Virus record (IMG/VR): IMGVR_UViG_3300031993_004551 | Location: 1 to 64,000 of that record | Strand: one strand, 5' to 3' | Origin: a virus | Lineage: Duplodnaviria > Heunggongvirae > Uroviricota > Caudoviricetes | DNA length: 64,000 nt | Part shown: piece by piece, positions 2,866 through 41,724 of the stretch | How positions within the stretch are numbered: position 1 is the stretch's first letter | How the letters are laid out: each line of letters opens with the position of its first letter | The notes under the pieces: model-generated | Database searches by the model: none | What the model was told of the DNA's origin: nothing | The model's input: only the letters and a program-made list of their open reading frames with translations | Program-made: the position numbers and the translations under genes

Positions 2866-3065
2866 GTTTTTTATAACATAGCGACGAGAAAACTCACCCA
2901 TCTTTAGTGGGTGAGATGAAAGCCGCTTGACGATTTTCGGAAAATTTGCTACATATATAAACTGATATACGAAGGCAACTCGCACTTGTCGTCGTGGGAA
3001 AGTTTAAGATGTACTTAGGTACATTGTGTCCTACCGGAAGTGCGAGTTCCGGTAGGATTTTTCGT

Positions 3066-4337
3066 ATGATAGTCAAGAAAGGCATAGAAATCAAGCTATA
3101 TCCGAACAAGGCGCAGAAGGTATTCTTTGCGAAGACCTTCGGTTGCTGTCGTTTCGTGTATAACCAGTGCCTTAAAATCAAGTCATATATCTACGAAGAG
3201 ACCAAGATGTCCTTCCAGCCGAAATTGAAGTCGTTTAAGGAAGAATGGGAATGGCTCAAGGAAGCCGACTCGCAAGGACTGGCTAATGCCTATATGGATA
3301 TGAACCAAGCCTACCAGAACTTCTTTACTGGTAAATCCAATTATCCGAGGTACAAGTCCAAGAAGGACAAGCAGAGCTACCGGAATGCTATGTGCCACAA
3401 GGATATTAAGAAACTAATTGTTGGCAATTCTATTGTACTGCCGAAGGTTGGTGCGGTCAAGTGCCGTTTCGGCAAGACATTCGAACACGAAAACATCGTT
3501 AAAATTTACAATGTTACAATCAAGAAAAGCAAGAAAGGCGACTATTATTGCTCAATATGTTGTGATGTTGATGTGCCGGAAATGGAACATACTGGCGAAT
3601 GCGTAGGACTCGACCTCGGCATCAAGTCGTCCATCGTGATGTCCAACGGAGAAGTGATTAAGAATCCACATTTCGATAAGAAGTCGGAACGAAAGATTAG
3701 GCATTTGCAGAGGAAACTCGCAAAGGCGAAGAAAGGCGGCAGTCGATACGAGAAAGTCCGTATTCAACTGGCCGCAGCCTATGAAAAACTGGGTAACAGA
3801 AGGAAAAACTTCCTTCATCAAGTATCGCACAGATTAGTCCGTGACTACGATATCATCTGTATGGAGAACCTTAACATAAAGGGAATGCAGAAAAACCATT
3901 GTCTTGCTGGCGCGTTGGCCAATCAGGCACTCGGTACACTAACTAAGATGATAGAGTACAAAGCTCAATGGCATAACCGTACGGTCGTTAAGGTAGGACG
4001 GTTCTTCCCCAGTTCGCAACTATGCAACAACTGTGGGCATAGATACCATACATTGAAACTTAGCGAACGCGAGTGGATATGTCCAGACTGTGGTAGCGTA
4101 ATAGATAGGGACTGGAATGCCGCCAAGAACATACTTGATGAAGGTCTTAGAATACTAGATAATGAAGGTACCCCGCGAACCGGGGAAGCCGTGGTCTTGC
4201 GACCGCTATGCCTTGCGGAGAACCCAACTGTGGATGAACGTCCTTGTGACCTAAAAAGCAGTGGTGCTATGATGCGGGAAATTCAACTGGTTGCATCGGT
4301 GGTTAACGAAACCCACCGGTCTTTAGCCGGTGGGTAG
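3066..4337 (+). CDS. tnpB: TnpB (IS605 OrfB-family RNA-guided nuclease)
   Basis: LYPNKAQ...GCCRFVYNQ N-terminus. RuvC-I GLDLGIKS. Zn finger CNNCGH...WICPDCGSVIDRDWNAAKNIL. Start moved to ATG 3066 (MIVKKGIEIKLYP). Confidence 0.85.
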   Translation: MIVKKGIEIKLYPNKAQKVFFAKTFGCCRFVYNQCLKIKSYIYEETKMSFQPKLKSFKEEWEWLKEADSQGLANAYMDMNQAYQNFFTGKSNYPRYKSKKDKQSYRNAMCHKDIKKLIVGNSIVLPKVGAVKCRFGKTFEHENIVKIYNVTIKKSKKGDYYCSICCDVDVPEMEHTGECVGLDLGIKSSIVMSNGEVIKNPHFDKKSERKIRHLQRKLAKAKKGGSRYEKVRIQLAAAYEKLGNRRKNFLHQVSHRLVRDYDIICMENLNIKGMQKNHCLAGALANQALGTLTKMIEYKAQWHNRTVVKVGRFFPSSQLCNNCGHRYHTLKLSEREWICPDCGSVIDRDWNAAKNILDEGLRILDNEGTPRTGEAVVLRPLCLAENPTVDERPCDLKSSGAMMREIQLVASVVNETHRSLAGG

Positions 4338-13445: not shown

Positions 13446-15092
13446 CTAGCGGCGGCGCATCTTGGCGGCCTTGTTCTTTGCCGCGTAAGCCTTCCACGGG
13501 GCATCAAATGTCTGCCCGTCGACGGTATCGACATGCGGCTCGGCGGCCATAAGATGGTCGTCAATCTGGCCAGTACTGTACGAAAGTTCATTAGGCGGAG
13601 TCCACAGGGTCATCCCGCGGAAGAACTTGTCCATGAACAGCTGAGCCTTCTTCGGCCACACCATCTGGCTGACATCGTGGTTCTTCACCTCGTACTCGCA
13701 CTGGCAGGCAACCTTGTACGCCTGCTTGATGTCGTTCATCAGGTTCTTGCGCCCGTGGCCGTTGTCGGACTGGTTCGTGCCGGAGAACGGAATTCCGCTA
13801 TTGAAAGACCGGCTCTCTTCCGTGCCGAGATGTTCCTGAGCATACCTGAGAATGCTGTCGTCAGTCTTAATCTTCAGCTTAGTGGTATGCATACCTGTCT
13901 TGGGCATTTCCACCCAGTCACCGGTGGCAACTAGGAACTTGTACAGCGGACGGAGGTCACTGCAGACCACGCCGCCTTCCAAAATCGCCATATACCCCTC
14001 GACCAGAACCTTGCGCAAGTTCGCATCGGTAATGTGGCTCATGCACTCAGTAATCGCGTTCATCTTTTTCTCTCCTGTAGTTTCGGATTCGCGCAGCGGG
14101 AGTCCGTCCCACATACGCATCTGGGATGCATAGCTGTCCCCGTTCTCGGAAATCCAGTTAAGGCAATCCCTGTAAGTTTTCTTGGCAAGCAGCGGTCTCG
14201 ACGGGTTCTTCCCGTAGACCGACCAGTTCGCCGTGTCAAAATTTGCCGTATCCATCACCCCGTCGTACTTGACGAGAAAGCAGCTCTTTGGCTCGTTAAT
14301 GTCGAATATGACCTGCCGTTCCCGGTCGCCATCATGGTCCACCACGACACCGCTACCCCGGAACACTATACTTGCACCCGGTTCGGCATAAGTATACTTC
14401 AGCCCGTGGTTACGGTGGCGCTCGCCCGGTGCAGGTGCATCGGCAAGCCTGTATGCGAACCCATACTTTCCCTGGCGGTCATTCGCCTTGTAGCCATATG
14501 CAAGGTACCCGAGGTAGTTCCCGCGGCGGAACCCGGAATTGTAAATCTGGCCGGCGTGGTCCGAATTATGGACTAGCCACCCGTTGATTACCCGCCGGTC
14601 CGCAGTGTCTTCAGGCTGGCTCAAGTTCCGCTCGTCAGAAAGGTCCCAGTCGCTTATGATTGGGTCCAGCACTATAGACGAAAGGATGTTCGGAATAGTC
14701 TCCATTACGGTTATTACGGTGTCCACGCTCAGCGGCATTTCGTCGCGAGCGGCGCGTAGCATATCCTTTTCCTTATTGGAAAGCCTAAGCGCCTCGTATT
14801 CGCAGGCCTCGGAATTACGCATATCCCTGATGTCCATCCCGAGCGCATAGTCGATAGCCCTACGGAAAGCCCTCAGGGCATCGCGGTTTCCGCTGACGAG
14901 GTAATGCACGACCTTTTCCGGGTCGCCCTTGGTAGAATAGTCGTTCGTGAAGGCGGTGGCGAACTTACTGCGGTCCAGATGTTCCGGCGAGTCCACCTCG
15001 CGGATGTACCTTGACAGGGCATTGAAGCCCGGCGTGATGCCCTCGAGTATAGTATCCTGTATTTTTTCAGCACATCCGTCCATAATACACAC
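13446..15092 (-). CDS. hypothetical protein (548 aa)
   Basis: Long ORF. No recognisable motif, and no canonical promoter motif upstream. Confidence 0.55.
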   Translation of the reverse strand: MCIMDGCAEKIQDTILEGITPGFNALSRYIREVDSPEHLDRSKFATAFTNDYSTKGDPEKVVHYLVSGNRDALRAFRRAIDYALGMDIRDMRNSEACEYEALRLSNKEKDMLRAARDEMPLSVDTVITVMETIPNILSSIVLDPIISDWDLSDERNLSQPEDTADRRVINGWLVHNSDHAGQIYNSGFRRGNYLGYLAYGYKANDRQGKYGFAYRLADAPAPGERHRNHGLKYTYAEPGASIVFRGSGVVVDHDGDRERQVIFDINEPKSCFLVKYDGVMDTANFDTANWSVYGKNPSRPLLAKKTYRDCLNWISENGDSYASQMRMWDGLPLRESETTGEKKMNAITECMSHITDANLRKVLVEGYMAILEGGVVCSDLRPLYKFLVATGDWVEMPKTGMHTTKLKIKTDDSILRYAQEHLGTEESRSFNSGIPFSGTNQSDNGHGRKNLMNDIKQAYKVACQCEYEVKNHDVSQMVWPKKAQLFMDKFFRGMTLWTPPNELSYSTGQIDDHLMAAEPHVDTVDGQTFDAPWKAYAAKNKAAKMRRR

Positions 15093-15117
15093 AGTTTATA
15101 CAGTAGAGGCACCAGTA

Positions 15118-15132
15118 TTTTGCTATATTTGG
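15118..15132 (+). promoter_or_regulatory. promoter motif (plus-oriented TTTTGCTATATTTGG) 28 nt upstream of the ATG at 15161
   Basis: Motif match. Confidence 0.5.
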
Positions 15133-15160
15133 AATAACCCTCTTTACAAAGAGTGAACCT

Positions 15161-16048
15161 ATGGAATACAAAATGGACAAGATTAACGCCTTGGAACTCC
15201 CGTACACCAAGGGCATATCCCTCGTGGATGACCACCTAGAGTACGGGGCCAGGGTAATAATACCCGAGAACAAGTGGACCATAATCCGGGTAGACGGCCA
15301 CAACTTCAAGCGCTTTGCGAAGCCCTTCAAGAAAATCAACCCGTTCCACCCGCTGGTTAACCTCGCGATGAAGACCGCGATGGAAGCGCTCATCAAGGAG
15401 TTCTCCCCGAAGGTCGCATATACGCAGAGCGACGAGATAACCCTCGTCATCGACCCTGGCCACCGGAAATACTCCGGAAGGACATGCAAGCTAGCCTCGC
15501 TGTCCGCGTCGATTGCCACGATGGCGTTCGACGACGCGATGAACCGCAACAACAAACTTGTTCCCGAGGAACTGCGGAAGGCATCGCCGGACGGCATCTA
15601 CCGGTGCGACGCCATCTTCGACGGAAGGGCGTACGCCGCCAACGAGAATGAGATAGCGGGTACCCTCCGGTGGCGCCAGAGGGACTGCATTCGAAACTCG
15701 ATTTCGAACCAGGCAAACCGCTACTTCTCCAACAAGCAGCTGCTCGGAAAGAACAATACCCAGCGGCTGGAGATGCTGAGGGAAATCGGGCATCCTTGGG
15801 AAGACCTGCCCTTCTGCGACAAGTACGGCATAATAGCCGTTCCGGTCCTGGAGGTGGTCGAGGTCGACATCGAGAAGCGCCGGGCGGAAGGCGCAAGCGA
15901 ACGCGAACTTGCCAACATCGCAGCGCACGATGGCCACACCCTGCGCTCCGTAGTAACCTACCCGTTGTACCCGCCGATGAAAGACATCAGCAACCTAATG
16001 GAAGTCCTGATTGAACACAAGGACCCTATCCTGAGAGGACAAAAATGA
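15161..16048 (+). CDS. Thg1-like protein (tRNA-His guanylyltransferase family, 3'-5' nucleotidyltransferase)
   Basis: [20 protein letters not shown] resembles Thg1 [33 protein letters not shown] resembles AYGQSDEYSFVF (catalytic acidic residues). [11 protein letters not shown] resembles SWRQADCHINN. Confidence 0.85.
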   Translation: [295 protein letters not shown]

Positions 16049-16506
16049 AAAAACTGTTTAAATTCATCTACACCTGCTATGAAATCTGGTGGCTTGCCAT
16101 AATCGCAAACACGGTCATCGGCATACTTGAAAAATGGATGCTGAAGAACCGCAAGAAACCAGCAAAGCCGGCCAACCCGCAGAAAGCCCTGTTCGAATCC
16201 AAAGAGGAACTTCTTCGTAAGGAAAGGGAAAAGCATGCTCAGACGAAGGCATTTTACGACAACTATCCCAAGATAGAACCGTTCGGCATCTCCGCGCAGG
16301 TAGCTACGCCGATTTCCACTGGCGAACGAGGAAAACAACTGATGCTCGAATCGTTCTCCCCGGAAGAACGCGAGCAGTTCATGGCTGCCGAGCCGACATC
16401 GAGCGCAAAGGAACTCACCAAGGAATGCATGAAGCAGTTCGACAAGCTGATGCGCGTGTTCGAGAAGAAAGAAGAAGACAAGATTCGCAGCGAGGAGGAT
16501 TTCTAA
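16045..16506 (+). CDS. hypothetical membrane-anchored protein (153 aa)
   Basis: N-terminal TM (IWWLAIIANTVIGIL). Overlaps neighbours by 4 and 1 nt. Confidence 0.5.
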   Translation: MKKLFKFIYTCYEIWWLAIIANTVIGILEKWMLKNRKKPAKPANPQKALFESKEELLRKEREKHAQTKAFYDNYPKIEPFGISAQVATPISTGERGKQLMLESFSPEEREQFMAAEPTSSAKELTKECMKQFDKLMRVFEKKEEDKIRSEEDF

Positions 16507-17258
16507 TGCCAAAGGCAATATCTTGCGGGTTCATCATCTTCGACCAGCACACCGGGGAAATACTCGGGTGCCACCCGACGGGACGCCCGGGAGGACCCGA
16601 GATGTCATTCGACATCCCCAAGGGCCACCTGGAGGAAGGAGAGGAACCGCTGGTCACCGCTCTCCGTGAACTTTACGAGGAAACCGGGCTTATCCTGCCG
16701 CAGGACTACCCGGTACACCAAATCGGCCTCCGCCCGTACCAAAAGCAGAAGTCCCTGTTTCTGTTCTCGACCGAAGTCGACAATCTTAAAGCAATGCTGC
16801 CGAACCTGAAATGCAACTCAATGTTCACCGACAGCTTCGGTAACCAGAAGCCAGAAGTCGACCGCTATACCGCAGTTGCCGACCCGAACTGGTTTTTCCA
16901 CAACATGCAGCCGCACATCAAGGCGGAAATCGAACGGGCAAAGTGCGAACCCGTGTGTCGCGTAGAGGCGACCGTAGACGATACCACTACCTATGTGAAG
17001 CTTCAGCTGACTGAAGAACTCAGGAACAAATCCCGCGATTCAATCGTGTACCTCAAGGACTCCAATGTGTATCCGAACGGGATTTCCTTCGATGTGAAGC
17101 TATCCACCGGCGATTATGCCAACATCGACATGGACGACCTGCAGAAAGCACTTGTCAACCCGGTCGTGGTAGATGTTACCGGCCTTACCGGGGCATTGCC
17201 CACATTCGACATCAACGAATGGCTCGACCAGGCACTCGCCCACGAGTCGTTGCACTAA
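16506..17258 (+). CDS. Nudix hydrolase
   Basis: Nudix box GHLEEGEEPLVTALRELYEETGL. Start at ATG 16506 (TAATG overlap with the upstream gene) rather than the track's 16425. Confidence 0.8.
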   Translation: MPKAISCGFIIFDQHTGEILGCHPTGRPGGPEMSFDIPKGHLEEGEEPLVTALRELYEETGLILPQDYPVHQIGLRPYQKQKSLFLFSTEVDNLKAMLPNLKCNSMFTDSFGNQKPEVDRYTAVADPNWFFHNMQPHIKAEIERAKCEPVCRVEATVDDTTTYVKLQLTEELRNKSRDSIVYLKDSNVYPNGISFDVKLSTGDYANIDMDDLQKALVNPVVVDVTGLTGALPTFDINEWLDQALAHESLH

Positions 17259-17290
17259 CGAAATTGATACGCAATCAATGTCTTCATATT

Positions 17291-17324
17291 AAAAAACAAG
17301 GCAGCCGCAAGGCTGCCTTTCTGC
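17291..17324. terminator. bidirectional intrinsic terminator between convergent genes
   Basis: AAAAAAC-AGGCAGCC-GCAA-GGCTGCCT-TTCT: an 8-bp stem flanked by A and T runs. Confidence 0.55.
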
Positions 17325-17345
17325 GTCTTAAAGAAGACCGGCCGA

Positions 17346-17711
17346 TTATTCGTCGCTAGCCTCGCGTACTGTCTTGCGAAGAATCTCCTGAGCTTCCTCT
17401 GAAAGCCCCGGGATTTCATCAATAGGGGTTTCAGGAATCTCATATATGCGGAGTATCTCGATATTCCCGCGGAGCGCAGGAACGGCATCGTAGAAAGCCT
17501 TTGCAAGGTGCCTAGCCTCGCCACGGTGCAGGTCGCTGACGATGGCATACTTGTGGTACAGCCGGATTGCGTACCAGTCGTCTTCATCCATCTTCACCAT
17601 CGGGATGACATCATCCATTTCCTCCACGATTTTAGCCAGTGTACGGCGAGTGAAGTGGAAGAATATAATGAGATAGACTGCGCTAAATACTTGTTTCATT
17701 ATCTTGTCCAT
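17346..17711 (-). CDS. hypothetical protein (121 aa)
   Basis: ORF. N-terminal hydrophobic segment. Confidence 0.45.
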   Translation of the reverse strand: MDKIMKQVFSAVYLIIFFHFTRRTLAKIVEEMDDVIPMVKMDEDDWYAIRLYHKYAIVSDLHRGEARHLAKAFYDAVPALRGNIEILRIYEIPETPIDEIPGLSEEAQEILRKTVREASDE

Positions 17712-17753
17712 AAGGTTTCTCCTTACATATCCCTTGCACCACCATACAGTAAA

Positions 17754-19481
17754 CTAGTCCATTTTGGACATCTGTTTCGTGTTCGGGTCGAAAAGATACA
17801 AGTTATTTTCAAAATCTTCCAGTTCGATAAGGAAGCTACCTGATTCATTGTTGATATCAATGTAGTTGAACGGCTGGTCCAGTGCCGGCTTGCTATCCTT
17901 ATAGAGATAATAAGCCCTAGACTTACGCTCTTGAGAGAACCTTGCGATGCGATAATATCCATCAGGAGTAAGAATGTCATCGACATACAACTCGACACCG
18001 GGATTCGTTATCTTAATGCATTCGTCCAGCCTAGACCCGGCCTTTCGCACGATATAGATATCGTCGCCTACCGCGGCAGCCCAGAAATCGGTATCCTTCA
18101 TGCCGACCAGGGCAGGCTTCTTGTTTACGCAAGAGCAGAACTTTGCCTCAGTAAGTTCACATTCGGTATCCTTTGAAAGGAACAGGGGCATCCCGGCTTC
18201 ATACAAGAATATCCCATTGGCTATCCGGTGGGAACCAGGCTTGTATACACGGAGCATCGAGTGATTTTCATCCAAGTATATCTGCCCGTCGGTTGAAATA
18301 TTCATATTCTTTGTATCAAGGACAACATTCCCATCGGTATAGTCTACAAGCAAATGCCCGTTAGCCACGACAAAATCACCGGCCTCGTTATCATTGAATG
18401 CCTCGATACTGTCATATACATCTGTAGTGTAACTGGGAATATTATCGTCATGCAGGATGCAATACCCTCTTTGCCCATTGCCGGAAAAGCCAACTATGCA
18501 GTATTCCGATTTATTAAGTCGTTCGCAGTCGGGAAACACGCTTTCCGGGTCAAGCCGTTCGTGCTTCATCACATCGATAGCATTGCCGAAACTGGACGCT
18601 TCCGATGTATTGAGCCCGGAGTTCTCAACGATTTGCCGGACGATATTCTTGCTTACGACATCGTTTGCCCGGTCAAACGCGAACACAACATCGCCGTATG
18701 CGTTCAGGGTGACACCAATCACCGAATACTTGTCGTAAGACTTTGACTGGTCGGCGCCGCGGCGGACAAGCAAGTAGAACCTCCCATCGCCATATAAGCT
18801 GTAGCGGTCCCAGTCATCCTCATGCTGTACATTGCACCAACGGTCGAGGTGGAACCTTTCGGAAAGCCTGCGCAGCTCATCCCACGAATTTACCCGTATT
18901 GCCTCGTAGTTAAGGGAACCGATGTCCTGCTCGATATCAGAACCGCTGACCTCGGTGGCCAAGTTATCGAAAGCGTCGTCACTCATCTCGGGTGCGCCGT
19001 TCGGGTAGTGCTGCTTGCAATACTCTACGAACTTGGTGGAAAATTCTTCAGCCGCTTCCCTACGGTATGAAGGGCTTCCCATGCGGTACCGGTCGACCAT
19101 CATAAAAGTCAACTGAGGGAACAGCGGAAGCATCTTCTTGAAAGTCGGGTCCGTAGTCGGGCTAACCCCGGGAGCAGCAAGGGGGTCCAGGAAGAGATGC
19201 CTTGTAGCAAGGACTACCTGATTTGCCAGTTCCTTGCTCATCCCGCGGGCATGTACCAGTCCATCACGGGTCCCGTCGATGATGCGACAGACCATCCCCT
19301 TCCCTTCCAGAATAGCACGGTAGCCGCTGTTGAGCGCCTCGGCAAGTGCAGCATCTTTAATTCTAATCTTCCTGTCCATAACCCGGAGTTTATACAATAA
19401 ATCCGCCGGATATAAAAAAAAAGAACGGACCTGGTGCGCGATGCCTTCGTCAATACGCAAGGTAGAGGCGTGTCCGTTCAT
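17754..19481 (-). CDS. hypothetical protein (575 aa)
   Basis: Long ORF. No motif recognised. Confidence 0.55.
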   Translation of the reverse strand: MNGHASTLRIDEGIAHQVRSFFLYPADLLYKLRVMDRKIRIKDAALAEALNSGYRAILEGKGMVCRIIDGTRDGLVHARGMSKELANQVVLATRHLFLDPLAAPGVSPTTDPTFKKMLPLFPQLTFMMVDRYRMGSPSYRREAAEEFSTKFVEYCKQHYPNGAPEMSDDAFDNLATEVSGSDIEQDIGSLNYEAIRVNSWDELRRLSERFHLDRWCNVQHEDDWDRYSLYGDGRFYLLVRRGADQSKSYDKYSVIGVTLNAYGDVVFAFDRANDVVSKNIVRQIVENSGLNTSEASSFGNAIDVMKHERLDPESVFPDCERLNKSEYCIVGFSGNGQRGYCILHDDNIPSYTTDVYDSIEAFNDNEAGDFVVANGHLLVDYTDGNVVLDTKNMNISTDGQIYLDENHSMLRVYKPGSHRIANGIFLYEAGMPLFLSKDTECELTEAKFCSCVNKKPALVGMKDTDFWAAAVGDDIYIVRKAGSRLDECIKITNPGVELYVDDILTPDGYYRIARFSQERKSRAYYLYKDSKPALDQPFNYIDINNESGSFLIELEDFENNLYLFDPNTKQMSKMD

Positions 19482-25134: not shown

Positions 25135-26277
25135 TTACTTTAAGTAACAATCGGCAAGCTGCAAAGCCTGCGAAATAGTGTCGTCCATGTCGTTATAGCG
25201 GTACATCCCGAGGCGCCCCGTGGGTACCACATTGAGTGGGAGCATTTCACGGTACTTCCTGTACAGCTCGGAGCTTTCCTTGCTCTTCACCGGGTAGTAT
25301 ACCTCTGTATCACGGGTCATTTCCTGCGGGTACTCGAAGCTCACTATGGACTTGGATTCCATCATGGCAAGCTGGTTCCACGGCTCGAAATGCTTGTGCT
25401 CGATGGTACGGGTGTAGTCCGGGTGGCGCTGGGTATAGTTCACTACGGCAACACCCTGATAGTTGTCGGTATCCTTTTCCTCGGTAACGAACTTCAGGCT
25501 GCGATACGGGAGGTCACCGAGCGAATAGTCAAAGTATTCGTCAAGCCGCCCGGAGTAAAATACCAAATTAGCCCGGTCATTCCATTCGTCCTTGCACTTG
25601 AGGTAGTCCTCTCCGGTGATGACCTGTGCAACCCCGTCGAACATATTGGAAATCCACTGGGTGTACCCGTTCTTCGGGATTCCCTGGTAGATATCGTTAA
25701 AGTAATTATTGTCGAAGCGGAACCTGAGCGGGATGCGGGTAATGATGTTCGAGTCAAGCTCTTTACAAGACTTCCCCCACTGCTTCTCGGTGTATCCCTT
25801 GATGAACAGCTCGTAGATTTCCTCGCCGACCATCGAAAGCGCCCTTTCTTCGAGGTTGGTATAGACCAGCTTCTGGAACTTCTTGGCGGATTCCTCGATG
25901 CGCTTCTTGGCGTCGGCTACGCTGAGCACATCGGGCCAGAGTTTTGTGAAGGTGTTCATGTTGAACGGGAGGTTGAACACTTCCGGATTCGTGTGACCCT
26001 CGCGGGTAACCATAGCAACCGGGCTGTTCACGAACGGCATCATCTCGTCAAAAAGGTTGGCGAAATCCCATACCTTCTTCTCGGATGTATGGAAAATATG
26101 CGCACCGTACTTGTGGACATTGATAGTGCCCATCCGTTCAGTAGCACAGTTTCCGCCCAGTTCTCCGCGGCGTTCAATGACAAGGACTTTCTTGCCCGCG
26201 TTGCCGAACTTATTGGCCAACACCGCGTTAAACAGGCCGGCGCCGACAAAGATAGCATCAAACTTTTGTTCTGACAT
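25135..26277 (-). CDS. glf: UDP-galactopyranose mutase
   Basis: FDAIFVGAGLFNAVLANKFGNAGKKVLVIERRGELGGNCATE...INVHKYGAHIFHT matches the Glf flavin-binding N-terminus nearly motif for motif. Start at ATG 26277 (MSEQKFD). Confidence 0.9.
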   Translation of the reverse strand: MSEQKFDAIFVGAGLFNAVLANKFGNAGKKVLVIERRGELGGNCATERMGTINVHKYGAHIFHTSEKKVWDFANLFDEMMPFVNSPVAMVTREGHTNPEVFNLPFNMNTFTKLWPDVLSVADAKKRIEESAKKFQKLVYTNLEERALSMVGEEIYELFIKGYTEKQWGKSCKELDSNIITRIPLRFRFDNNYFNDIYQGIPKNGYTQWISNMFDGVAQVITGEDYLKCKDEWNDRANLVFYSGRLDEYFDYSLGDLPYRSLKFVTEEKDTDNYQGVAVVNYTQRHPDYTRTIEHKHFEPWNQLAMMESKSIVSFEYPQEMTRDTEVYYPVKSKESSELYRKYREMLPLNVVPTGRLGMYRYNDMDDTISQALQLADCYLK

Positions 26278-28312
26278 TGTAGCTCCTCTTTGGAATGACG
26301 GCATCGTGCGCCTCTGTCTTTACTTCGACTACAGTGGACTCTTCGTTCACCGGGGCCTCTACCGGCTTCGGTTTTTCCTTGACCGGCTCAGTAAAGAACT
26401 TGATGAGCGTATCGCGGTCCATCTTGGTAAGGTCGAGGTCGACTTCACCCTGGTAATCCGCATTGACCGGATGGAAGCCAAATAGCTTGAGAACAGACAC
26501 GAGGCTAATCGTGCGGCCAATCTGCATAATGAGGGAGTCTACCATATTTACGGTATCGCCGTTCTTCATCGGGGCGCGGTTGTTACCGGTAGCCTTACCG
26601 ATGAGCATCACGAAGGAATGGTTAGCGATAGCAAGCGTAGTCCTCTTGGCGGCAATCCTGGAGTCAAGCTGAACGATAATTTCCTCGGGCTTCACCATGC
26701 ACTCCCCGTCTGCCAACGGGCAGGCATCCTTCTTGGCGAAGAACATACGGTAGCGCCCCTGCTTGGCCGAACCGCTGAACTGGTGGAGATTGAAGATGAC
26801 GCCACCATTAGCATAGCCACCGAAATAGATACATTCCGTTGCTTCCGGGTCAGCATTCGTCATGTCCCCGGAGTAGCGCAGATGGAACATCTTCTTCTTC
26901 GGGTCCTCGCCCGGGATATCCGACTTGAAGGTAGTATTCCAGGAAACAGTAGTGCCTTCCAAAGTGGACGCCGAGAGGTCAAAGTCATGCGTACCCCATT
27001 CGTTTCTCCAGTATACCCCAATTACATTGTGCTCGTAGCGGCGAAGCTTGGTACCCATCGGGTAGTCGCCGACGAAGTTTTTTTCGGAGGTCGGGAGCGC
27101 GACCGCGATATTATCGTCAACCTTGATGAACCCAGTCTTCTTCTTTTTGGTGATGAAGTTCGAGATAGACGCGATGATAAGACCCTGCACACTCTGGAGC
27201 CAGAGCATGGATTCCGGGGAACGCTTCGGAGCGTATCCCTTGCGGACAAAGAGTCTACCCGTACGGATAGTGTACACGCTATTCTGGAGAGGTCTCGGGG
27301 CAAGACGGTCGGCGACCGCCTGAAGGAGCCTGAGACGGCGGAACATCGGAGTCTTTTCGAGGGCTTCGGCAACGGCGTCAAGCTTGGCACGGTCACCCGG
27401 AACAAAAATGCAGTCGAGAACGCCCGGTTCATAAGGCTGTTTCAACTTCTTGGCAAGGTGGCTGATGCGGTTGATTGCCATATGGACGGAGTACTTTTCG
27501 ACATCGCCGTAGTCCACCCCGCGGAGCGCCATGAAAAGCTTCTTGAAGCGGAAGTAAACGGTAGCAAGGATTTTATACTCGGTCTCACCAAGGTTCTCGA
27601 AAATCTCGAGCAGTTCTTCATCGTTCTCGGTCGCCCGAATCTCCTGGCATGTCTTCTTGGTGTTCACCAGCATCGCGCTTCCGGTCGCCACATACACGAG
27701 GTAGCGAACGAATTCCACCGGGTCCGTGGGAGTAGTTGCCGTATCCTGATAAATCAGGCAGCGCGCTTCCCTGTTGCGGATTTCTGAAATGTCGCACCCG
27801 CCGTGGGCCTTGATATAACCATAAACGAGAAGCACCGTATCGGCACTGAGGGCAATCCCGGAAGCAAGCATCTTGATGCAGCGCTGCTTGAGTTCATCTG
27901 CAGTGACCGAAGGAATCGTGGTAAGCTTGCTGAAGTCGATTACATAGGTTTCCTGTTCGATTACCTTTTCAGTTTCACGGTTATTCGGCACATAGCCGTT
28001 CCCACAGGCAAAGTCCGTCCCGTAGGTGGACATATAGTGTACCATCTGGTCGAATGCAAGCTGGACTTCGGAGCGGCTTTCGATGTCGTTCCAAGCCTTG
28101 TAGAAGGTGCTGTTCGGGTCGGTAGCTGTATCGAGGAGCCAGTCGCGCACCAGTTCGGTACACGACTCGGGAGCCACCATGAATCCCCTCATGCAGGCGA
28201 GGCGGTTCACCTCGTTAAAGCTTACAAGTTCCCCGCATTCCCCGGGAACTACACAGTGGAACAACTTCAAAAGCTCCACCGGCATCACATATTTTTCAAT
28301 AGCTTCGGACAT
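26258..28312 (-). CDS. hypothetical protein (684 aa)
   Basis: Long ORF. Start at the internal ATG 28312 (MSEAIEK). 20-nt overlap with glf. Confidence 0.55.
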   Translation of the reverse strand: MSEAIEKYVMPVELLKLFHCVVPGECGELVSFNEVNRLACMRGFMVAPESCTELVRDWLLDTATDPNSTFYKAWNDIESRSEVQLAFDQMVHYMSTYGTDFACGNGYVPNNRETEKVIEQETYVIDFSKLTTIPSVTADELKQRCIKMLASGIALSADTVLLVYGYIKAHGGCDISEIRNREARCLIYQDTATTPTDPVEFVRYLVYVATGSAMLVNTKKTCQEIRATENDEELLEIFENLGETEYKILATVYFRFKKLFMALRGVDYGDVEKYSVHMAINRISHLAKKLKQPYEPGVLDCIFVPGDRAKLDAVAEALEKTPMFRRLRLLQAVADRLAPRPLQNSVYTIRTGRLFVRKGYAPKRSPESMLWLQSVQGLIIASISNFITKKKKTGFIKVDDNIAVALPTSEKNFVGDYPMGTKLRRYEHNVIGVYWRNEWGTHDFDLSASTLEGTTVSWNTTFKSDIPGEDPKKKMFHLRYSGDMTNADPEATECIYFGGYANGGVIFNLHQFSGSAKQGRYRMFFAKKDACPLADGECMVKPEEIIVQLDSRIAAKRTTLAIANHSFVMLIGKATGNNRAPMKNGDTVNMVDSLIMQIGRTISLVSVLKLFGFHPVNADYQGEVDLDLTKMDRDTLIKFFTEPVKEKPKPVEAPVNEESTVVEVKTEAHDAVIPKRSYNVRTKV

Positions 28313-28384: not shown

Positions 28385-28897
28385 TTACGGCTTCAGCATA
28401 TTCCTGACAGTGGTAATAGCCTTGCCGAGAAGGTTCTGACCGCGCCAGTTAGCCTCGTCGTCAATGCCGTTGGCACCCATAGGCATCAGGATTCCCCAAA
28501 TTCCGTCTACCGGGGAAGCCTCGACGAAAGTCTTCCCGTCGAAGCGAGGGTCGAGCAACTTCTCCAGCAAATCCGGATTCTGCCGGTACTTCTCGAGATT
28601 GACCTGAATCATTATGTCGTACCGTACCTTGGCCCACTTTTCGTTATCAAACGGCTTCACCTGACGGCCAAGCGACTTGGCATCCATCGGGGTAGCCGCC
28701 TTGAGTATGGCGTCCGCCGTCCTGGTGTCGCCGAAGTAGTTCGCCTTTTCCCACATGAACGCCTGTTCCGTGCAGAAGAAAGTTTCCGTCTTCTTGGTTG
28801 TGCCGTCGATATGGCTGCTGTAGGCGAAGCTGCACCGCCTGAAGTTGGATGGCCATTCCTTGTAGAAGAATACATGCGTATCAGTGATATCCAGCAT
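28385..28897 (-). CDS. NADAR-domain protein (YbiA/DUF1768-like)
   Basis: FFYKEWPSNF...FCTEQAFMWEKA...WAKVRYDIM...GIWGIL matches the NADAR fold signature. Start at ATG 28897. Confidence 0.72.
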   Translation of the reverse strand: MLDITDTHVFFYKEWPSNFRRCSFAYSSHIDGTTKKTETFFCTEQAFMWEKANYFGDTRTADAILKAATPMDAKSLGRQVKPFDNEKWAKVRYDIMIQVNLEKYRQNPDLLEKLLDPRFDGKTFVEASPVDGIWGILMPMGANGIDDEANWRGQNLLGKAITTVRNMLKP

Positions 28898-28905
28898 GGC
28901 TACCC

Positions 28906-29529
28906 CTATGCGTCGTTGATGACGCGGCTGAGCCACCGTCCGAAACGGTTATCGTACATGTTAAGTTCCGGGAGATGCTTGGCGATAGCATCGATGCAAT
29001 CGCTGACGCACTCGTCGATACCCTTACGGCCATCCACATAGACCACCGGCGTATTCCCGAGGAACTTCTCGGTCTCCGCATACGCGGTACGCAAATTCTC
29101 GAGACGCCCCGGAGTTTCCTTGAGCTTGGGTTCGCGGTCATAGCAGGTCTCGAGCGGGGTCTCCATGAAGATGTACAGGTCGGGCTGCTTGAAGATGTTG
29201 AAGTCCTGATACAGCTCCTCGCAGAACGAATAGATGCTCGGGGAGAATGCCTTGGCATAGGCAAGCCCGCTCCATAGGTACCTGTCGAGCAGAACCATAT
29301 TCCCGTTGTAGAACTTCTGCTGACGGAGACGGCCTTCGAGGAAAAACACCTCGCGCTTGGCGTCCTTGCCCTTGAACTCGTCCGAGTTGAGCCGGTCAGC
29401 CTCCTCGGTGGAAAACAGGGGTTCCTTGCTCCACTTGAATTCCGGGTAGCGCTTGGCGATAATCTTGGAAATCGTGGTCTTGCCGGAGTTGTCCACGCCT
29501 TCAAACACGATAAGCGGATTATGCTTCAT
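28906..29529 (-). CDS. tmk: thymidylate kinase-like P-loop kinase
   Basis: P-loop IVFEGVDNSGKTT. LDRYLWSGLAYAKA resembles the dTMP kinase DRY..S..AYQ motif. Start at ATG 29529 (MKHNPL), not 29652. Confidence 0.68.
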   Translation of the reverse strand: MKHNPLIVFEGVDNSGKTTISKIIAKRYPEFKWSKEPLFSTEEADRLNSDEFKGKDAKREVFFLEGRLRQQKFYNGNMVLLDRYLWSGLAYAKAFSPSIYSFCEELYQDFNIFKQPDLYIFMETPLETCYDREPKLKETPGRLENLRTAYAETEKFLGNTPVVYVDGRKGIDECVSDCIDAIAKHLPELNMYDNRFGRWLSRVINDA

Positions 29530-30382
29530 TCTTCGGGCCCTCCTTGGGCTTCTGTAAACGGGTCTCCACGAGGGCAGTGGTCGCGTCAGCGTGAACAATA
29601 TTATATCCCGGGTATTTCCCTGACGCATTAAAGTTCTTGGTGTACGGGTCAATCTGCATCTGGATGGCCGGGGCGGTATACTGGATAAGCCCGGTACGGT
29701 GGCAAATCTTGGTGTTTGCGTGGTGGTAATGGCCGCAGCAGACGGTAGTAACCTTAGCGCTCTTCATAAGCACCCGGACGAACTCAAAGTTTACCGGAAG
29801 CGTGAACTGTTCCTGGTTCATGAAGCGGTGGAACGGACGGACAAGCGGCATATGAGTGAACGCAGTCATCGTATGTTCGCCGACATCTGGCATTGCCAAC
29901 AGGCGGAACAGCCCTTCGACCGGATAGTCCTTATGCGCCGTATCGAGCAGGCATAACCTTGTATTGGAACTCTTGCCCTTGGCAAATGCAATAGCCTGTC
30001 CCGGGACATTAAACGAGCCGTCGAACCGAAATTCGAAAAATGCATTCTTATTGTAAAGGTATACGAACTTTTTACGGAACGCCGTAAATGCTTCCTCAAG
30101 AGCAGCACGGTTATCGTGGTTACCCGGGGTTACCAAGATTGCCGGCTGATACTCTTCAGGCAAGTCCCCCCCGAACGCCCGTTGCAATCCCTCGAGAAGA
30201 TTAGTGTAATCTTCGACCGTAGCGTCATCCACGAGGTCGCCGGTAAGGACGATAAGGTTGTAATGGCTGTACTGCCTTCCGGCATCAGCCAGTACGGCGT
30301 CCAGGTTTCCCTGGACATCGAACATACCCTTCTGGTCCCCCTTGAGGTGTATATCCGAAAGTTGAAGTATTAATGATTCCAT
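29519..30382 (-). CDS. calcineurin-like metallophosphoesterase (CpdA/Icc-type cyclic nucleotide phosphodiesterase-like)
   Basis: Motif series SDIHL, GDLVDD, GNHDN, GHYHH. Confidence 0.7.
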   Translation of the reverse strand: MESLILQLSDIHLKGDQKGMFDVQGNLDAVLADAGRQYSHYNLIVLTGDLVDDATVEDYTNLLEGLQRAFGGDLPEEYQPAILVTPGNHDNRAALEEAFTAFRKKFVYLYNKNAFFEFRFDGSFNVPGQAIAFAKGKSSNTRLCLLDTAHKDYPVEGLFRLLAMPDVGEHTMTAFTHMPLVRPFHRFMNQEQFTLPVNFEFVRVLMKSAKVTTVCCGHYHHANTKICHRTGLIQYTAPAIQMQIDPYTKNFNASGKYPGYNIVHADATTALVETRLQKPKEGPKNEA

Positions 30383-30401
30383 AGGTTTCTAGGTTCCTTA
30401 T

Positions 30402-30869
30402 TTATTTGTAAACAATCTTGATTACATGCGGTGTTTCCAAGAACACTCCCTTGATTATCTCGGAGACGACCTCCCATTCCAACCGGTCAAGCCCGCAGCC
30501 GATTTTCGGCATCACGATGACCTTAGGCTCGGCAAAGTTCATCGCAAGGTACTGCCGAAACGCAACCAGGGACTTAGTGAGCGTAAGATAGGTCGGCTTA
30601 TCCCACGAATGCTCCTTCGTTATCAAGTTAATAAAAGTCCCTTTATCTGTAACGACCGGCATCGCCATTCCCGGGAACAAGTCGATAGTATTGCCTTCCG
30701 GGTTATTGCTGCACCTGTACCGGCACTTCTTTTCCGCATTGTACATATCGCGGATGATTACCGGGGCTATTCCGCTGCCCCATGCGAGGTCGGCCGCGAT
30801 GCAATGGGCAATGATTACTCCGGTCGTATCGACGGTCGTGATATCACGCTTTTCTTCAAAATATCTCAT
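30402..30869 (-). CDS. macro-domain protein (ADP-ribose binding/processing)
   Basis: VIIAHCIAADLAWGSGIAPVI resembles the macro-domain phosphate-binding loop (VVNAAN...G.GIA). Size 155 aa. Confidence 0.55.
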   Translation of the reverse strand: MRYFEEKRDITTVDTTGVIIAHCIAADLAWGSGIAPVIIRDMYNAEKKCRYRCSNNPEGNTIDLFPGMAMPVVTDKGTFINLITKEHSWDKPTYLTLTKSLVAFRQYLAMNFAEPKVIVMPKIGCGLDRLEWEVVSEIIKGVFLETPHVIKIVYK

Positions 30870-31713
30870 CGGCTTTAATTTCCTTCGTTATCAGGCGCGA
30901 ATAAAGGTTCGCGTATGCTTTAAACTCCTCGGCATCGATGAACGGCCCAAGATTCACTACCGGGTTGTTATGCTCGTTCACCACCTCGAATACGCACTGC
31001 GGATGTTCTTTAGTAGCGCGGTAGTAGGTATTCTTCTTGAGCAGGAGAATCTTCCTCGTCGTATATGGCGTATTGGCATAGTTGATTGCCATGCCATAAT
31101 TGCCCTCAAATGCTATCCCGTAACCGTTGCCAAGCTTAAGTCTAGGGAACAACTTGCGGTCGGACGCATCCTTGCCGCATATTTTCTTAACCCATACAAG
31201 AAAACGGTAATCCTCGTCGTGGTAGGCATTCCATATCCGGGAAACCTCCTGCACACTCTCCACGCCCAGTTCGGAGTCTTCCGTTATCATATAACGGACG
31301 CCTTCCGGAATATCAACAATGCGAAGCGTATTGTTGTCGTTCAGCTTGTCGAGCATCTTGTAGTCGCCACCGAGAGCATCCACATAGGAAACAAGGGTGT
31401 CGCGCAGTTCGCTACCGGTAGTGTCAAAAGAAAGGTTCACCGATGCGGTATCGGGCACATCTCCATGTAGAGGATTACCGGAATCGTCATAGCAGGACTT
31501 TGTAGCGTTAAAGTGGACAAGCCAAGCCTTGATGAGCTTGCTCGAACCCCCGAAAACAGCCAAGGCTTTCCCGTTGGAGTCCGCAGGTAAAAAATAAGGG
31601 TCGGGGGATACGGTATCCCCTACCCTTTCGGCCAAATACATTGCCGCCCCGAGAGATATCTGGGGTACGCCGATACTTGTCGAGACGAGCACCTTTGGCA
31701 TTATACGCCCCAC
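30856..31713 (-). CDS. hypothetical protein (285 aa) inside the NAD island
   Basis: ORF overlapping both neighbours (14 and 13 nt). No recognisable motif. Confidence 0.5.
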   Translation of the reverse strand: MGRIMPKVLVSTSIGVPQISLGAAMYLAERVGDTVSPDPYFLPADSNGKALAVFGGSSKLIKAWLVHFNATKSCYDDSGNPLHGDVPDTASVNLSFDTTGSELRDTLVSYVDALGGDYKMLDKLNDNNTLRIVDIPEGVRYMITEDSELGVESVQEVSRIWNAYHDEDYRFLVWVKKICGKDASDRKLFPRLKLGNGYGIAFEGNYGMAINYANTPYTTRKILLLKKNTYYRATKEHPQCVFEVVNEHNNPVVNLGPFIDAEEFKAYANLYSRLITKEIKADEIF

Positions 31714-32486
31714 TTCGGAATACGGACGATATCGCGCTTGAACTGCGATGCCTTTACACGGGCCTGGATTTTACCCAAAACGCCAATATTAAGTGTTTCC
31801 GGATTATTGACATAAGTCCGGATGTCATCGTAAGTAAAGCCGAGGTTGTCCTCGTCCGTCTTACCACTGAGGCCGTCGGACGGAGCCTTGTAGACAAGAT
31901 GTTCCGGGAGGCCAAGCGCCATTCCCAGCTTGCAGACATCCTGCTTGAACAGGGTACCAATCGGAGCCAAATCGCCAGCAAGGTCGCCCCACAAGGTACA
32001 GTATCCGACGAGAGCTTCTGAGAAGTTTCCCGTGCAGAGAACGCGGCCTTCACCGAGCGCCTGTGCAACCATGTACAGCTTTTCCATACGGATACGCGGG
32101 GCGAGATTGATTTCTGCCTGACGGTCATACATGTGCTTCGTACCGAGACCCTTGATGAGTTCAATCTGCTTCAGCCCAATCTGGTAATCGTCGTGGATGT
32201 TGATTGTAAGCGTACGGGTAATCCCGGCAGCTACTGCACAATTGTGAGCATCTTCAAGGTCTGGCTGGACTCCGTTCGGGAGGAACACGCCGATTACCTT
32301 GTCCGCGCCTAAAGTCCTCGTGGCAAGCTTGCCGACAACCAAGGAGTCGGTTCCGCCGGACATACCGAGAACGAGAAATTCGCCGTGATTTTCTTGCATC
32401 GTGAGCTTAATCCACTGTCCGATGCTATCGGCCATTTCGATGAACTTGGCGGTTTCTTCTTCAGTCATTTTATCTGGCGTGAGCAT
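31701..32486 (-). CDS. nadE: NH3-dependent NAD+ synthetase
   Basis: PP-loop LVLGMSGGTDSLV. Downstream LCTGNFSEALVGYCTLWGD is characteristic of NadE. Start at ATG 32486 (TAATG coupling to pncA). Alternative ATG at 32467. Confidence 0.85.
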   Translation of the reverse strand: MLTPDKMTEEETAKFIEMADSIGQWIKLTMQENHGEFLVLGMSGGTDSLVVGKLATRTLGADKVIGVFLPNGVQPDLEDAHNCAVAAGITRTLTINIHDDYQIGLKQIELIKGLGTKHMYDRQAEINLAPRIRMEKLYMVAQALGEGRVLCTGNFSEALVGYCTLWGDLAGDLAPIGTLFKQDVCKLGMALGLPEHLVYKAPSDGLSGKTDEDNLGFTYDDIRTYVNNPETLNIGVLGKIQARVKASQFKRDIVRIPKWGV

Positions 32487-33106
32487 TATGCGGCTCCTTT
32501 GTAAATAGTGGGGACGACATCGCAGAGCATGGAACGGGCAAGCGTGAATGCCGCTTCCTGAGCCTGCTTGTTCTGTTCGGCATTGATGAAGCAAGCCGCA
32601 GTAGCACCGTCGACCACCTCAATTTTTGCATCCGGGAACCAAGCGCGGTCGATTGCCCAGTTGGAGGCATCACAGATGTCCGTGCAGGTACCGGTATAGC
32701 GAATGACGATGTTCTTGCCACGGGTAAGTGCGGCAACGGCATCCTGGTCCGTAGAGTCGATATCGAACATAACCTTCGGCCAGTTGATGAAACCAAAGTT
32801 ATGCTTGTCGATGATGATGGCATTCTTCTTCTTGAGAGCAGCCATGATTCTCGGCTCGATTTCCCATTCCGGTGTGCCGTAGACACAGTGAATCGGGAGA
32901 CGCTTGCCTTCAATAGACTGGTAATAGGAATCGTCGTCGAAGTGCGTATCGCGGGTGGCGATAATGATGCCGTCCCACGCCTCGATTTCGGCGATTACGG
33001 CGTCAATGATGGCTTCTGCAGCCGGATTCTTGAGGACTCCGGTTATGAATCCTATCTGCATGTCGATTACTTTGAGAATCTTGAGAGCTTTATCTATCAG
33101 GTTCAT
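32486..33106 (-). CDS. pncA: nicotinamidase (isochorismatase/cysteine hydrolase family)
   Basis: VIDMQIGF (D), conserved K region, GTCTDICD catalytic Cys. Confidence 0.82.
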   Translation of the reverse strand: MNLIDKALKILKVIDMQIGFITGVLKNPAAEAIIDAVIAEIEAWDGIIIATRDTHFDDDSYYQSIEGKRLPIHCVYGTPEWEIEPRIMAALKKKNAIIIDKHNFGFINWPKVMFDIDSTDQDAVAALTRGKNIVIRYTGTCTDICDASNWAIDRAWFPDAKIEVVDGATAACFINAEQNKQAQEAAFTLARSMLCDVVPTIYKGAA

Positions 33107-33121
33107 TTTTGCTTCTGTTGG

Positions 33122-34777: not shown

Positions 34778-34781
34778 AGCT

Positions 34782-34813
34782 CAAATATAGCAAAAATCCC
34801 CGTTTCCGGGGAT
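34782..34813 (-). promoter_or_regulatory. overlapping terminator hairpin (34796-34813) and promoter motif (34782-34796). ATG of nadM lies 4 nt downstream
   Basis: ATCCCCG-TTT-CGGGGAT hairpin. Its 3' T-run is the TTTTT of TTTTTGCTATATTTG. Confidence 0.55.
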
Positions 34814-34823
34814 TCTTTTAAGT

Positions 34824-40499: not shown

Positions 40500-41006
40500 T
40501 TACCGCTTTAAATTTACATAATCGGTTGCTTCCCTTAGCAAAGATAGCAATTCCTCGGCAACAGGAGGTTCATACTTGCACAGCAACTCGTTGATATTCA
40601 AGTCTTTCTCGATAAAATAATTGGGGTCGGCCCACAGCAGGCATATTTCGTACTGCCCCTTGGTAAGCTTCAGGAATTTCTTCGCCGCATCAGTCTCGGC
40701 AAGCGCCGCAGCGATATACCCGGCATCCAAGTCGGATATCTTGATGTAGTTGCCGTACCGGTAGGTTTCCAAACGCATATCGATATACGGCGAAACATAT
40801 ATCGCATAATTCTTCGGCTCTTCTTCCGGCGCCCAACTGGCGGCAGCATCCTTGTGACCAACCCGGCGAAGCACCGAGGTAGACCTTCTCAGTATCCGTC
40901 TAAGCCAATGAAGAGCAATGAGCAGGTATAGCGCCTTCTTCAGCACAGTATAGATTCCCTCGCCTTCTTCAGCTTGAGATAGGTGTGGACATTGTAGTGG
41001 ACACAT
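40500..41006 (-). CDS. hypothetical protein (start uncertain)
   Basis: ORF. Its 5' end overlaps the phosphatase gene by 66 nt, so the true start is probably internal or non-ATG. Confidence 0.35.
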   Translation of the reverse strand: MCPLQCPHLSQAEEGEGIYTVLKKALYLLIALHWLRRILRRSTSVLRRVGHKDAAASWAPEEEPKNYAIYVSPYIDMRLETYRYGNYIKISDLDAGYIAAALAETDAAKKFLKLTKGQYEICLLWADPNYFIEKDLNINELLCKYEPPVAEELLSLLREATDYVNLKR

Positions 41007-41440
41007 GGATTATCCGGGTTAGTCTCGTTATGGTCCGGATAGAAGTCAAGCACATAGCGGGTGACCGCCTGGGAACGGGACTTGCCGGCCCTGCAGTGAA
41101 CCATTATGTCCATATCCTTGTGGGACTCGATGAACCGGACTATTTTCCCGGCGGTCTCATTGGTTATCCCGTGAGCAGTAAGCGGGTCGCTATTGTCGCC
41201 ATCGTCGCGCATATCGAAATAATCGACATCAACCGTTATGTCGTCGAACTCCACATTGAGGACATTTTCGTGGTCTTCGGAGAAGAAATGCGGGTCGCCG
41301 TCACGGAGAACCCGGTTAGCCACTTCCGGGTTGCAGCAGATGGAAATCACGGCGAAATCCTTGGGAGGATTAGCGTCGCTGAACCCGTGTTCACGGCAGT
41401 ACTTCTCGAAGTTTCGCTTGCTGAAACAGATTATCTTCAT
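40940..41440 (-). CDS. dual-specificity (CX5R) protein/RNA phosphatase
   Basis: VHCRAGKSRSQAV is the HCxxGxxRS P-loop of cysteine phosphatases. Confidence 0.7.
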   Translation of the reverse strand: MKIICFSKRNFEKYCREHGFSDANPPKDFAVISICCNPEVANRVLRDGDPHFFSEDHENVLNVEFDDITVDVDYFDMRDDGDNSDPLTAHGITNETAGKIVRFIESHKDMDIMVHCRAGKSRSQAVTRYVLDFYPDHNETNPDNPCVHYNVHTYLKLKKARESILC

Positions 41441-41449
41441 CGGGGGAAC

Positions 41450-41665: not shown

Positions 41666-41724
41666 AATAGTCTCCTTAATTTCCTTCCATAGGCATGTAT
41701 TGTCAGTTTAGCGGATGCCGCCGC

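Follow-up and report, generated by a model that had tools for sequence, protein, structure and literature searches.

In the Thg1 superfamily, a 5'-monophosphate RNA end is adenylylated to App-RNA, which is then attacked by the 3'-OH of the incoming nucleoside triphosphate (NTP) (PMC6471195, PMC8131947). Addition of the NTP leaves a 5'-triphosphate able to drive the next addition, and eukaryotic Thg1 finally removes pyrophosphate (PMC6471195, PMC8131947). Thg1 adds a single non-templated G-1. The Thg1-like proteins (TLPs), by contrast, carry out templated additions and are thought to leave the 5'-pyrophosphate in place (PMC6471195). Here we describe a gene of this superfamily at positions 15161-16048 of a 64,000-nucleotide stretch of viral DNA (IMG/VR record IMGVR_UViG_3300031993_004551, positions 1 to 64,000), hereafter the window. 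We used sequence comparison and a modelled structure to assign its product to the TLPs. The gene is part of an operon that also encodes a NUDIX hydrolase, and this pair is conserved throughout one phage lineage.

Thg1 homologues of viruses have been discussed before. In 2010, Anantharaman, Iyer and Aravind proposed a role in RNA repair for Thg1 in “certain large DNA viruses” and described neighbourhoods in which it occurs with polynucleotide kinase, Macro and RNA ligase (PMC2904730). Iyer et al. (2021) described Thg1 as restoring 5' nucleotides in some jumbo phages, and listed it with RlaP, the CCA-adding enzyme and RNA ligases (PMC7824862). The supported part of the interpretation, i.e., that the TLP presumably repairs tRNA 5' ends, is already a published view. 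Phage TLPs are, as a kind, common and widely annotated, and the window gene is a divergent member. Using tblastn, we detected TLP relatives in 157 GenBank phage records, many annotated as tRNA-His guanylyltransferase, in phages of Bacillus, Prevotella, Caulobacter, Mycobacterium and Brevundimonas, in BcepSaruman, in phage G and in others. All of them are less than 60% identical to the window TLP (approximately 26-34% among the matches listed). At least 399 IMG/VR contigs encode a TLP relative. The annotated phage tRNA-His guanylyltransferases (PHROG 4717; e.g., gp332 of BcepSaruman and gp378 of Bacillus phage G) belong to the same family, come from large or jumbo phages and are at most about 32% identical to the window TLP. 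The annotated neighbours of their genes are hypothetical proteins, SSB or guanylate kinase, and none is annotated as NUDIX.

The best match to the window protein, in both sequence and structure, is the TLP of Bacillus thuringiensis (BtTLP, PDB 4KGK/4KGM). The two share the catalytic carboxylates and the D-x-x-K/R-N-S-I-S motif, but they are only 23-30% identical over the Foldseek alignments and the window protein is about 50 amino acids longer, with an insertion and a tail proper to its subclade. Eukaryotic Thg1 (human 3OTB, Candida albicans 3WBZ, yeast 5XOX) has the fold, the two-metal active site and the three-step chemistry of the family, but its similarity to the window protein amounts to only about 30 bits, and the latter lacks the HINNLYN motif. 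The sequence likeness to archaeal TLP (PDB 5AXK-5AXN, including a complex with tRNA-Phe) is weak (23 bits to 5axk). A physiological role of a TLP in rebuilding truncated 5' ends has been demonstrated for Dictyostelium DdiTLP3, in the 5'-editing of mitochondrial tRNAs, whereas the phage tRNAs studied below give no sign that they need editing. The anticodon-loop repair of phage T4 by Pnkp and Rnl1 is a nick ligation, in contrast to the polymerisation onto the 5' end by TLPs. The window shares with T4 an Rnl1-type ligase and has other RNA-repair genes, and the phage therefore probably repairs broken tRNAs. Yet, we found no Pnkp-type kinase in the window, and its repair genes are unlinked to the TLP. 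Finally, the NUDIX partner shares an intact Nudix box with the RNA 5' pyrophosphohydrolases RppH and BsRppH (YtkD), and RppH, YtkD and Dcp2 are among its weak top matches.

Identity and active site of the TLP

The gene and its active-site motifs are located as follows:

15161-16048, plus strand: TLP gene, 295 amino acids, an open reading frame (ORF) with an ATG start, identified by Pfam, PHROG, a PDB match and an AlphaFold2 (AF2) model compared with Foldseek
15287-15298, plus strand: RVDG motif (R43, D45, G46), where D45 corresponds to D29 of human Thg1, the first metal-binding carboxylate (alignment A1 and mapping to 3otb)
15428-15436, plus strand: SDE motif (S90, D91, E92), corresponding to S75, D76 and E77 of human Thg1 (alignment A1 and mapping to 3otb)
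15671-15706, plus strand: TLP-type counterpart of the eukaryotic HINNLYN region, residues 171-182 (motif comparison of 44 sequences)

The ORF has exactly the boundaries and the strand that a preliminary description of this DNA had given for a Thg1-family gene. The three signature strings quoted there are all present in the translation (residues 43-52, residues 88-97, and RWRQRDC at residues 170-176), far beyond what is expected by chance. The 295-residue protein is matched by the Pfam profile PF04446 (Thg1) with 85.9 bits (E 2.9e-24, residues 30-158), well above the gathering cut-off of 29.2 bits, and by PHROG 4717, “tRNA-His guanylyltransferase”, with E 7e-39. No NCBIfam model matches it. The closest solved relative is PDB 4kgk, i.e., BtTLP (E 1.8e-18, residues 27-227). 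The AF2 model, for which 20 homologues were given as input, has a mean pLDDT (predicted local distance difference test) of 88.3 and a pTM (predicted template modelling score) of 0.84. We compared this model with the PDB using Foldseek, and all of the 32 matches with E ≤ 0.001 are Thg1 or TLP chains (top E 1.7e-15). Their target-normalised TM-scores of 0.67-0.81 indicate that the modelled protein adopts the Thg1 palm and fingers fold. The next matches, outside Thg1 and TLPs, have E > 0.01. The ratio of nonsynonymous to synonymous substitution rates (dN/dS) between the gene and a 90%-identical relative is 0.30, which shows purifying selection.

We transferred the numbering of human Thg1 through the HMMER alignment to 3otb and studied conservation in alignment A1, which includes 20 sequences with identities to the window TLP as low as 29%. 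The residues R43, D45, G46, F49, Y87, Q89, S90, D91, E92 and K110 are invariant, and so are F153, D154, R156, W171, R172, D175, N179 and R262. These comprise all of the Thg1-specific residues, those of the DxR signature and of the WRQxD motif among them. The preliminary description had held that loss of the catalytic carboxylates on alignment would speak against it. No such loss is seen, since D45, D91 and E92 are invariant together with the other active-site residues. The active site is thus intact.

In eukaryotic Thg1, a His in the HINNLYN motif stacks on the anticodon (PMC6471195). We compared this region in 44 sequences, including BtTLP, CaThg1 and HsThg1. The human and Candida enzymes read DCHINNLYN, whereas BtTLP reads DASKNSIS and the window TLP reads DCIRNSIS. 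The TLP-type form of the motif is present in 40 of the 40 retrieved homologues. In a neighbour-joining (NJ) tree of 133 core columns, the window TLP falls on the TLP side, in a monophyletic subclade (P0001-P0019). The outgroup of this distance tree consists of two eukaryotic Thg1 fragments (Hs and Ca) and the tree carries no support values, so that the placement is supportive rather than definitive. A phylogeny of TLPs versus bona fide Thg1 had been proposed in the preliminary description as a check of its claim. The tree, the DCIRNSIS motif and the HMMER scores (70 bits to BtTLP versus about 30 to the human, Candida and yeast Thg1) all group the protein with the TLPs. Hence, by sequence and predicted structure, the gene product is a Thg1-superfamily protein of the TLP type and not a bona fide Thg1. 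Relative to BtTLP, the phage subclade has an insertion of about 25 amino acids forming two helices (residues ~235-258) and a conserved C-terminal tail, and it keeps the canonical C-terminal strand with the invariant R262. The window TLP has a further insertion at residues ~130-150.

The TLP-NUDIX operon and its conservation

The preliminary description passed over the sole real linkage of the TLP, which is an operon with a NUDIX hydrolase gene. Its other elements in the window are:

16045-16506, plus strand: small middle ORF, 153 amino acids, whose ATG start overlaps the TLP stop (ATGA, 16045-16048)
16506-17258, plus strand: NUDIX hydrolase, 250 amino acids from a conserved MPKAISCGF start, which overlaps the stop of the middle ORF (TAATG, 16504-16508)
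16623-16691, plus strand: Nudix box, G40-x5-E46-x7-R54-E55-x2-E58-E59-x-G61-L62, invariant in an alignment of 29 sequences (A2)
17298-17319, no strand assigned: GC-rich hairpin of 9 pairs, a terminator-like site between the convergent NUDIX gene and a minus-strand gene at 17346-17711

A purine-rich, Shine-Dalgarno-like run lies just 5' of both gene junctions, i.e., TLP/middle ORF and middle ORF/NUDIX. From this arrangement, the TLP, the small hydrophobic protein and the NUDIX are probably co-transcribed and translationally coupled. The hairpin at 17298-17319 is likely to be the end of the three-gene transcription unit. It was called as a terminator on the minus strand, and we infer its role on the plus strand. 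A scan of positions 14800-17800 for sigma-70 promoters returned 0 sites.

The NUDIX partner consists of an N-terminal Nudix domain, with an intact box (GHLEEGEEPLVTALRELYEETGL) invariant in A2, and a C-terminal domain of about 100 amino acids that matches no family. Its weak top matches include the models of RppH and YtkD and the structures of RppH and Dcp2, and decapping enzymes are among the top Foldseek matches. The protein does not match the RppH subfamily model at the subfamily level (best score 20.7 bits, cut-off 116), and the NudE, MutT and YtkD models score it about as the RppH model does. The product of the middle ORF begins with a hydrophobic helix and continues into a charged tail; it has conserved Cys/Lys-rich and PLFES motifs and matches no Pfam or PHROG family. 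Pfam scans of the C-terminal domain of the NUDIX, of the middle ORF and of the TLP tail gave nothing above noise. The dN/dS values of the NUDIX (0.18) and of the middle ORF (0.36) show that both are constrained, the NUDIX more so than the TLP.

We then studied 12 loci of the TLP subclade, i.e., the window, L001-L007, L086, L087, L172 and L173, which cover all of its five deep branches. All 12 have, downstream of the TLP gene and in the same orientation, a NUDIX gene of one family, mostly with a small hydrophobic ORF between the two. The order TLP, small ORF, NUDIX is found in L001, whose TLP is 90% identical to that of the window, in L002-L004 and L006 and in L005 and L007, two groups whose TLPs are 39-40% identical to it, and also in L086, L087 and L173. 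The counterparts of the middle ORF have 50-160 amino acids in L001, L002, L005, L006 and L007. L172, from the fifth deep branch, lacks the middle ORF. Its TLP is directly adjoined by a single-domain NUDIX of 165 amino acids with overlapping stop and start codons, which is 54% identical to the window NUDIX (E 1e-56). The genes flanking the pair in L172 are entirely unlike those of the window; together with those of the L002 type, this makes three or more flanking contexts in which the pair occurs. Across relatives, sequence conservation is higher in the NUDIX than in the TLP (identities of ~52-56% versus ~40%).

As a control, we searched for ORFs with a Nudix box within 1.5 kb of TLP genes elsewhere. 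None was found in 61 cellular TLP loci; the window TLP differs from BtTLP in having a partner that was seen at none of these. Among 77 viral loci there were three such cases: two from this subclade, and L048, whose NUDIX is unrelated. Hence, we rejected linkage to NUDIX as a general property of TLPs, L048 being the only case among about 75 viral loci outside the subclade. The lineage-wide TLP-NUDIX operon is new, in that we did not find it described in the literature searched; the same searches gave no paper on a link between Thg1 and Nudix proteins.

Some loci depart from this organisation. In L088 (4001-6555), a more distant member of the two-domain NUDIX family (P0147, 38% identity) lies beside ClpP and an Rnl1-type RNA ligase with no TLP, and in L089 a NUDIX relative of 154 amino acids (P0146) adjoins ClpP without a ligase. 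In L086 (2629-3539), the TLP is split into ORFs of 100 and 214 amino acids, both of which match PF04446; the split may reflect a frameshift, a pseudogene or an assembly error.

RNA-repair genes and other features of the phage genome

The window encodes a terminase large subunit at 318-1655, which identifies it as a phage. This terminase is about 24% identical to those of T4-like phages, its best matches among cultured phages, and a megablast search of positions 14000-18000 against GenBank phages gave no match. The contigs that carry relatives of the cassette are 123-431 kb long, and the lineage is therefore probably one of huge phages. The RNA-repair genes are:

37473-38699, minus strand: Rnl1-type RNA ligase (PF09511, 46.1 bits; phrog_562), 21 kb from the TLP
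42431-43666, minus strand: RlaP, the Pol-beta nucleotidyltransferase of an RNA repair pathway (PF10127, 79.2 bits; phrog_388)
52326-53669, minus strand: second RNA ligase (PF09414 with a PHA02142 OB domain; phrog_968), 36 kb from the TLP
29519-30382, minus strand: calcineurin-like metallophosphoesterase (PF00149, 48.9 bits; no PHROG match), 13 kb from the TLP and possibly a 3'-end healing enzyme

Two ligases and end-healing enzymes had been invoked together with the TLP in the preliminary description. The two ligases are indeed present, as are RlaP and the metallophosphoesterase. However, they are all encoded on the opposite strand, 13-37 kb away from the TLP. Hence, “together” can only mean in the same genome. 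A polynucleotide kinase is not among them. In the window ORFs of 90 amino acids or more, a Walker A motif occurs only in an AAA ATPase, an SF1 helicase and PhoH, and a DxDxT motif in none. The RNA ligases and RlaP match, at the level of the genome only, the published repair toolkit of jumbo phages (PMC7824862).

Several other loci of the window are worth recording. A minus-strand island at 28385-37492 encodes functions related to NAD+ and ADP-ribose: NADAR (140 bits), the metallophosphoesterase, an NAD synthase (NadE), an NMNAT-NUDIX fusion and a NAPRTase/Nampt-like protein. It is directly followed by the Rnl1-type RNA ligase, and resembles the NAD+-restoring systems of phages (PMC7824862). 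A candidate Macro domain within this island, at 30402-30869, was rejected because it scored below the threshold (13.6 bits, cut-off 22). A HEARO RNA (Rfam RF02033, 97.7 bits) at 58446-58686 on the plus strand lies directly 5' of a gene for a 427-residue RRXRR and HNH protein (58738-60021, plus strand). The two look like an IscB-type element with a guide-like RNA in a phage genome, and a low-GC patch (GC 0.356 at 58001-60000) suggests that it was inserted recently. The window also has four TnpB/Cas12f-like (IS605 OrfB) genes, at 2994-4337 (plus), 43771-44946 (minus), 47933-49165 (plus) and 62142-63941 (minus), and similar genes are found near the cassette in L005 and L087. We identified a homologue of translation initiation factor IF-3 at 51552-52241 (minus strand; IF3_N with 88.4 bits, IF3_C with 32.0 bits, just under the cut-off of 34.8), a UDP-galactopyranose mutase at 25135-26304 (minus strand, 232 bits) and a glycosyltransferase of family 2 at 46805-47902 (minus strand, 23.3 bits, exactly at the threshold). 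The latter two may modify sugars of the host surface or of the phage DNA. Three long ORFs, including 40985-42417 (plus) and 28881-29504 (minus), have V-, R- and L-rich translations that match no family and resemble antisense or non-coding frames; they were not counted as genes.

Possible roles of the TLP and the NUDIX hydrolase

We propose that the TLP, which is predicted to be catalytically competent, rebuilds the truncated 5' ends of tRNAs and that the co-expressed NUDIX finishes or proofreads the same 5' end. We give this reading a probability of roughly 0.55, and infer with it a tRNA substrate, a repair role in vivo and a functional coupling of the two enzymes. By analogy with the family, the TLP would activate a 5'-monophosphate RNA with ATP to App-RNA, or use a 5'-triphosphate end directly. 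It would then add NTPs one at a time in the 3'-to-5' direction, each templated by Watson-Crick pairing with the 3' strand of the acceptor stem of the tRNA, such that 5'-truncated tRNAs are rebuilt during infection. Since TLPs are thought not to remove pyrophosphate, a repaired and fully paired acceptor stem would keep its 5'-triphosphate, which makes it plausible that the NUDIX finishes the 5' end. In chemical terms, both App-RNA and 5'-triphosphate RNA are of a type that Nudix enzymes hydrolyse. The NUDIX would act on the end left by the last addition, turning the 5'-triphosphate into the 5'-monophosphate of a mature tRNA, or might alternatively clear abortive App-RNA. A stronger version, in which the two enzymes form a dedicated module for RNA 5' ends and the NUDIX supplies the pyrophosphate removal or the App-RNA clean-up that TLPs lack, is possible but doubtful.

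The TLP might also work alone, next to a NUDIX that is kept by inherited synteny and serves as a housekeeping enzyme of nucleotides or ADP-ribose, or in counter-defence, without any mechanistic link. This is quite conceivable, if below an even chance. Synteny alone accounts poorly for the overlapping start and stop codons, for a pair that persists while the TLP falls to 39% identity and the flanks change completely (L002 and L172 versus the window), and for the adjacency of the two genes in L172 after loss of the middle ORF. Yet, the pairing is restricted to one phage lineage, so that shared ancestry is still a possible explanation for it.

We tested tRNA-His maturation, 5'-editing of phage tRNAs and the trigger for repair (ALTERNATIVES). 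The standard database annotation implies that the TLP adds or restores G-1 opposite C73 on the tRNA-His of the host or of the phage, with no general repair. Bacterial and archaeal TLPs can do so (PMC6471195), and in two phage loci of other lineages a tRNA-His gene lies within 6 kb of the TLP. However, both of these tRNA-His genes already encode G-1 and C73, and G-1 addition is therefore not obligatory there. There is also no tRNA-His gene in the window or in the cassette loci, and the protein lacks the HINNLYN motif of anticodon recognition. We thus regard this role as improbable. We attach similarly little weight to a role at the 5' ends of other RNAs, where the NUDIX would convert a triphosphate or a cap (NAD, Np4N) to a monophosphate that the TLP then extends, or to editing of phage tRNAs by the TLP in the mitochondrial style. 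TLPs do recognise RNAs more broadly than Thg1 does (PMC6471195), decapping enzymes are among the top Foldseek hits of the NUDIX, and the order in which the two enzymes act cannot be told from sequence. But Rfam revealed no candidate substrate RNA in the window, where it matched only the HEARO RNA. As for editing, only 1 of 108 positions was mismatched in acceptor pairs 1-3 of 36 phage tRNAs encoded near TLP genes of other phage lineages, with the alignment offset chosen to maximise pairing, and there is thus no sign that editing is needed. We consider it very improbable that the protein is a remnant without activity or that its palm domain serves another chemistry, e.g., the synthesis of signalling nucleotides by the related GGDEF and Cas10 enzymes. 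The palm domains of GGDEF proteins and CRISPR polymerases are relatives of Thg1 (PMC2904730), but the Thg1-specific residues, with DxR and WRQxD, are invariant, the dN/dS is 0.30, and structural matches outside Thg1 and TLPs all have E > 0.01.

Several observations weigh against repair of tRNA 5' ends by the TLP with the help of the NUDIX. In the literature checked, we met no defence that shortens tRNAs at the 5' end. The tRNA-directed defences described there cleave the anticodon loop, or else the 3' strand or the CCA tail, and not the 5' strand that a TLP can rebuild. Those that damage the 3' strand or the CCA tail (retron Eco2, Cas12a3 and HEPN-MNT) hit the very strand that the TLP would use as a template, and hence no known defence explains why a phage should need 5'-end repair. 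Neither the window nor any of the cassette-bearing loci was found to contain a tRNA gene. A search for P-loop polynucleotide kinases by Walker A and DxDxT motifs found none, although ORFs under 90 amino acids were not examined and several under about 200 amino acids were not scanned with profiles. Besides the confinement to one lineage, more distant NUDIX homologues have no adjacent TLP (L088, L089), and L086 has an intact NUDIX downstream of a split TLP. Our literature searches yielded no biochemical study of a phage TLP. The suggestion of the preliminary description, that the phage repairs tRNA 5' ends, is therefore upheld as far as it draws on a TLP with an intact active site and on a repair toolkit in the same genome; it lacks a tRNA gene and an attack on the 5' strand, and had been published before.

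The physiological role of bacterial-type TLPs is not settled, and the phage operon is a tractable lead. If the two enzymes do form a dedicated module, the NUDIX would be the first defined partner of a TLP, and some host attack would be implied that truncates tRNA 5' ends. If the 5' ends of tRNAs are repaired as we propose, one may ask which host nuclease, if any, attacks them. The TLP-NUDIX pair offers a concrete pair of enzymes that bears on how the 5'-triphosphate left by templated addition becomes a 5'-monophosphate.

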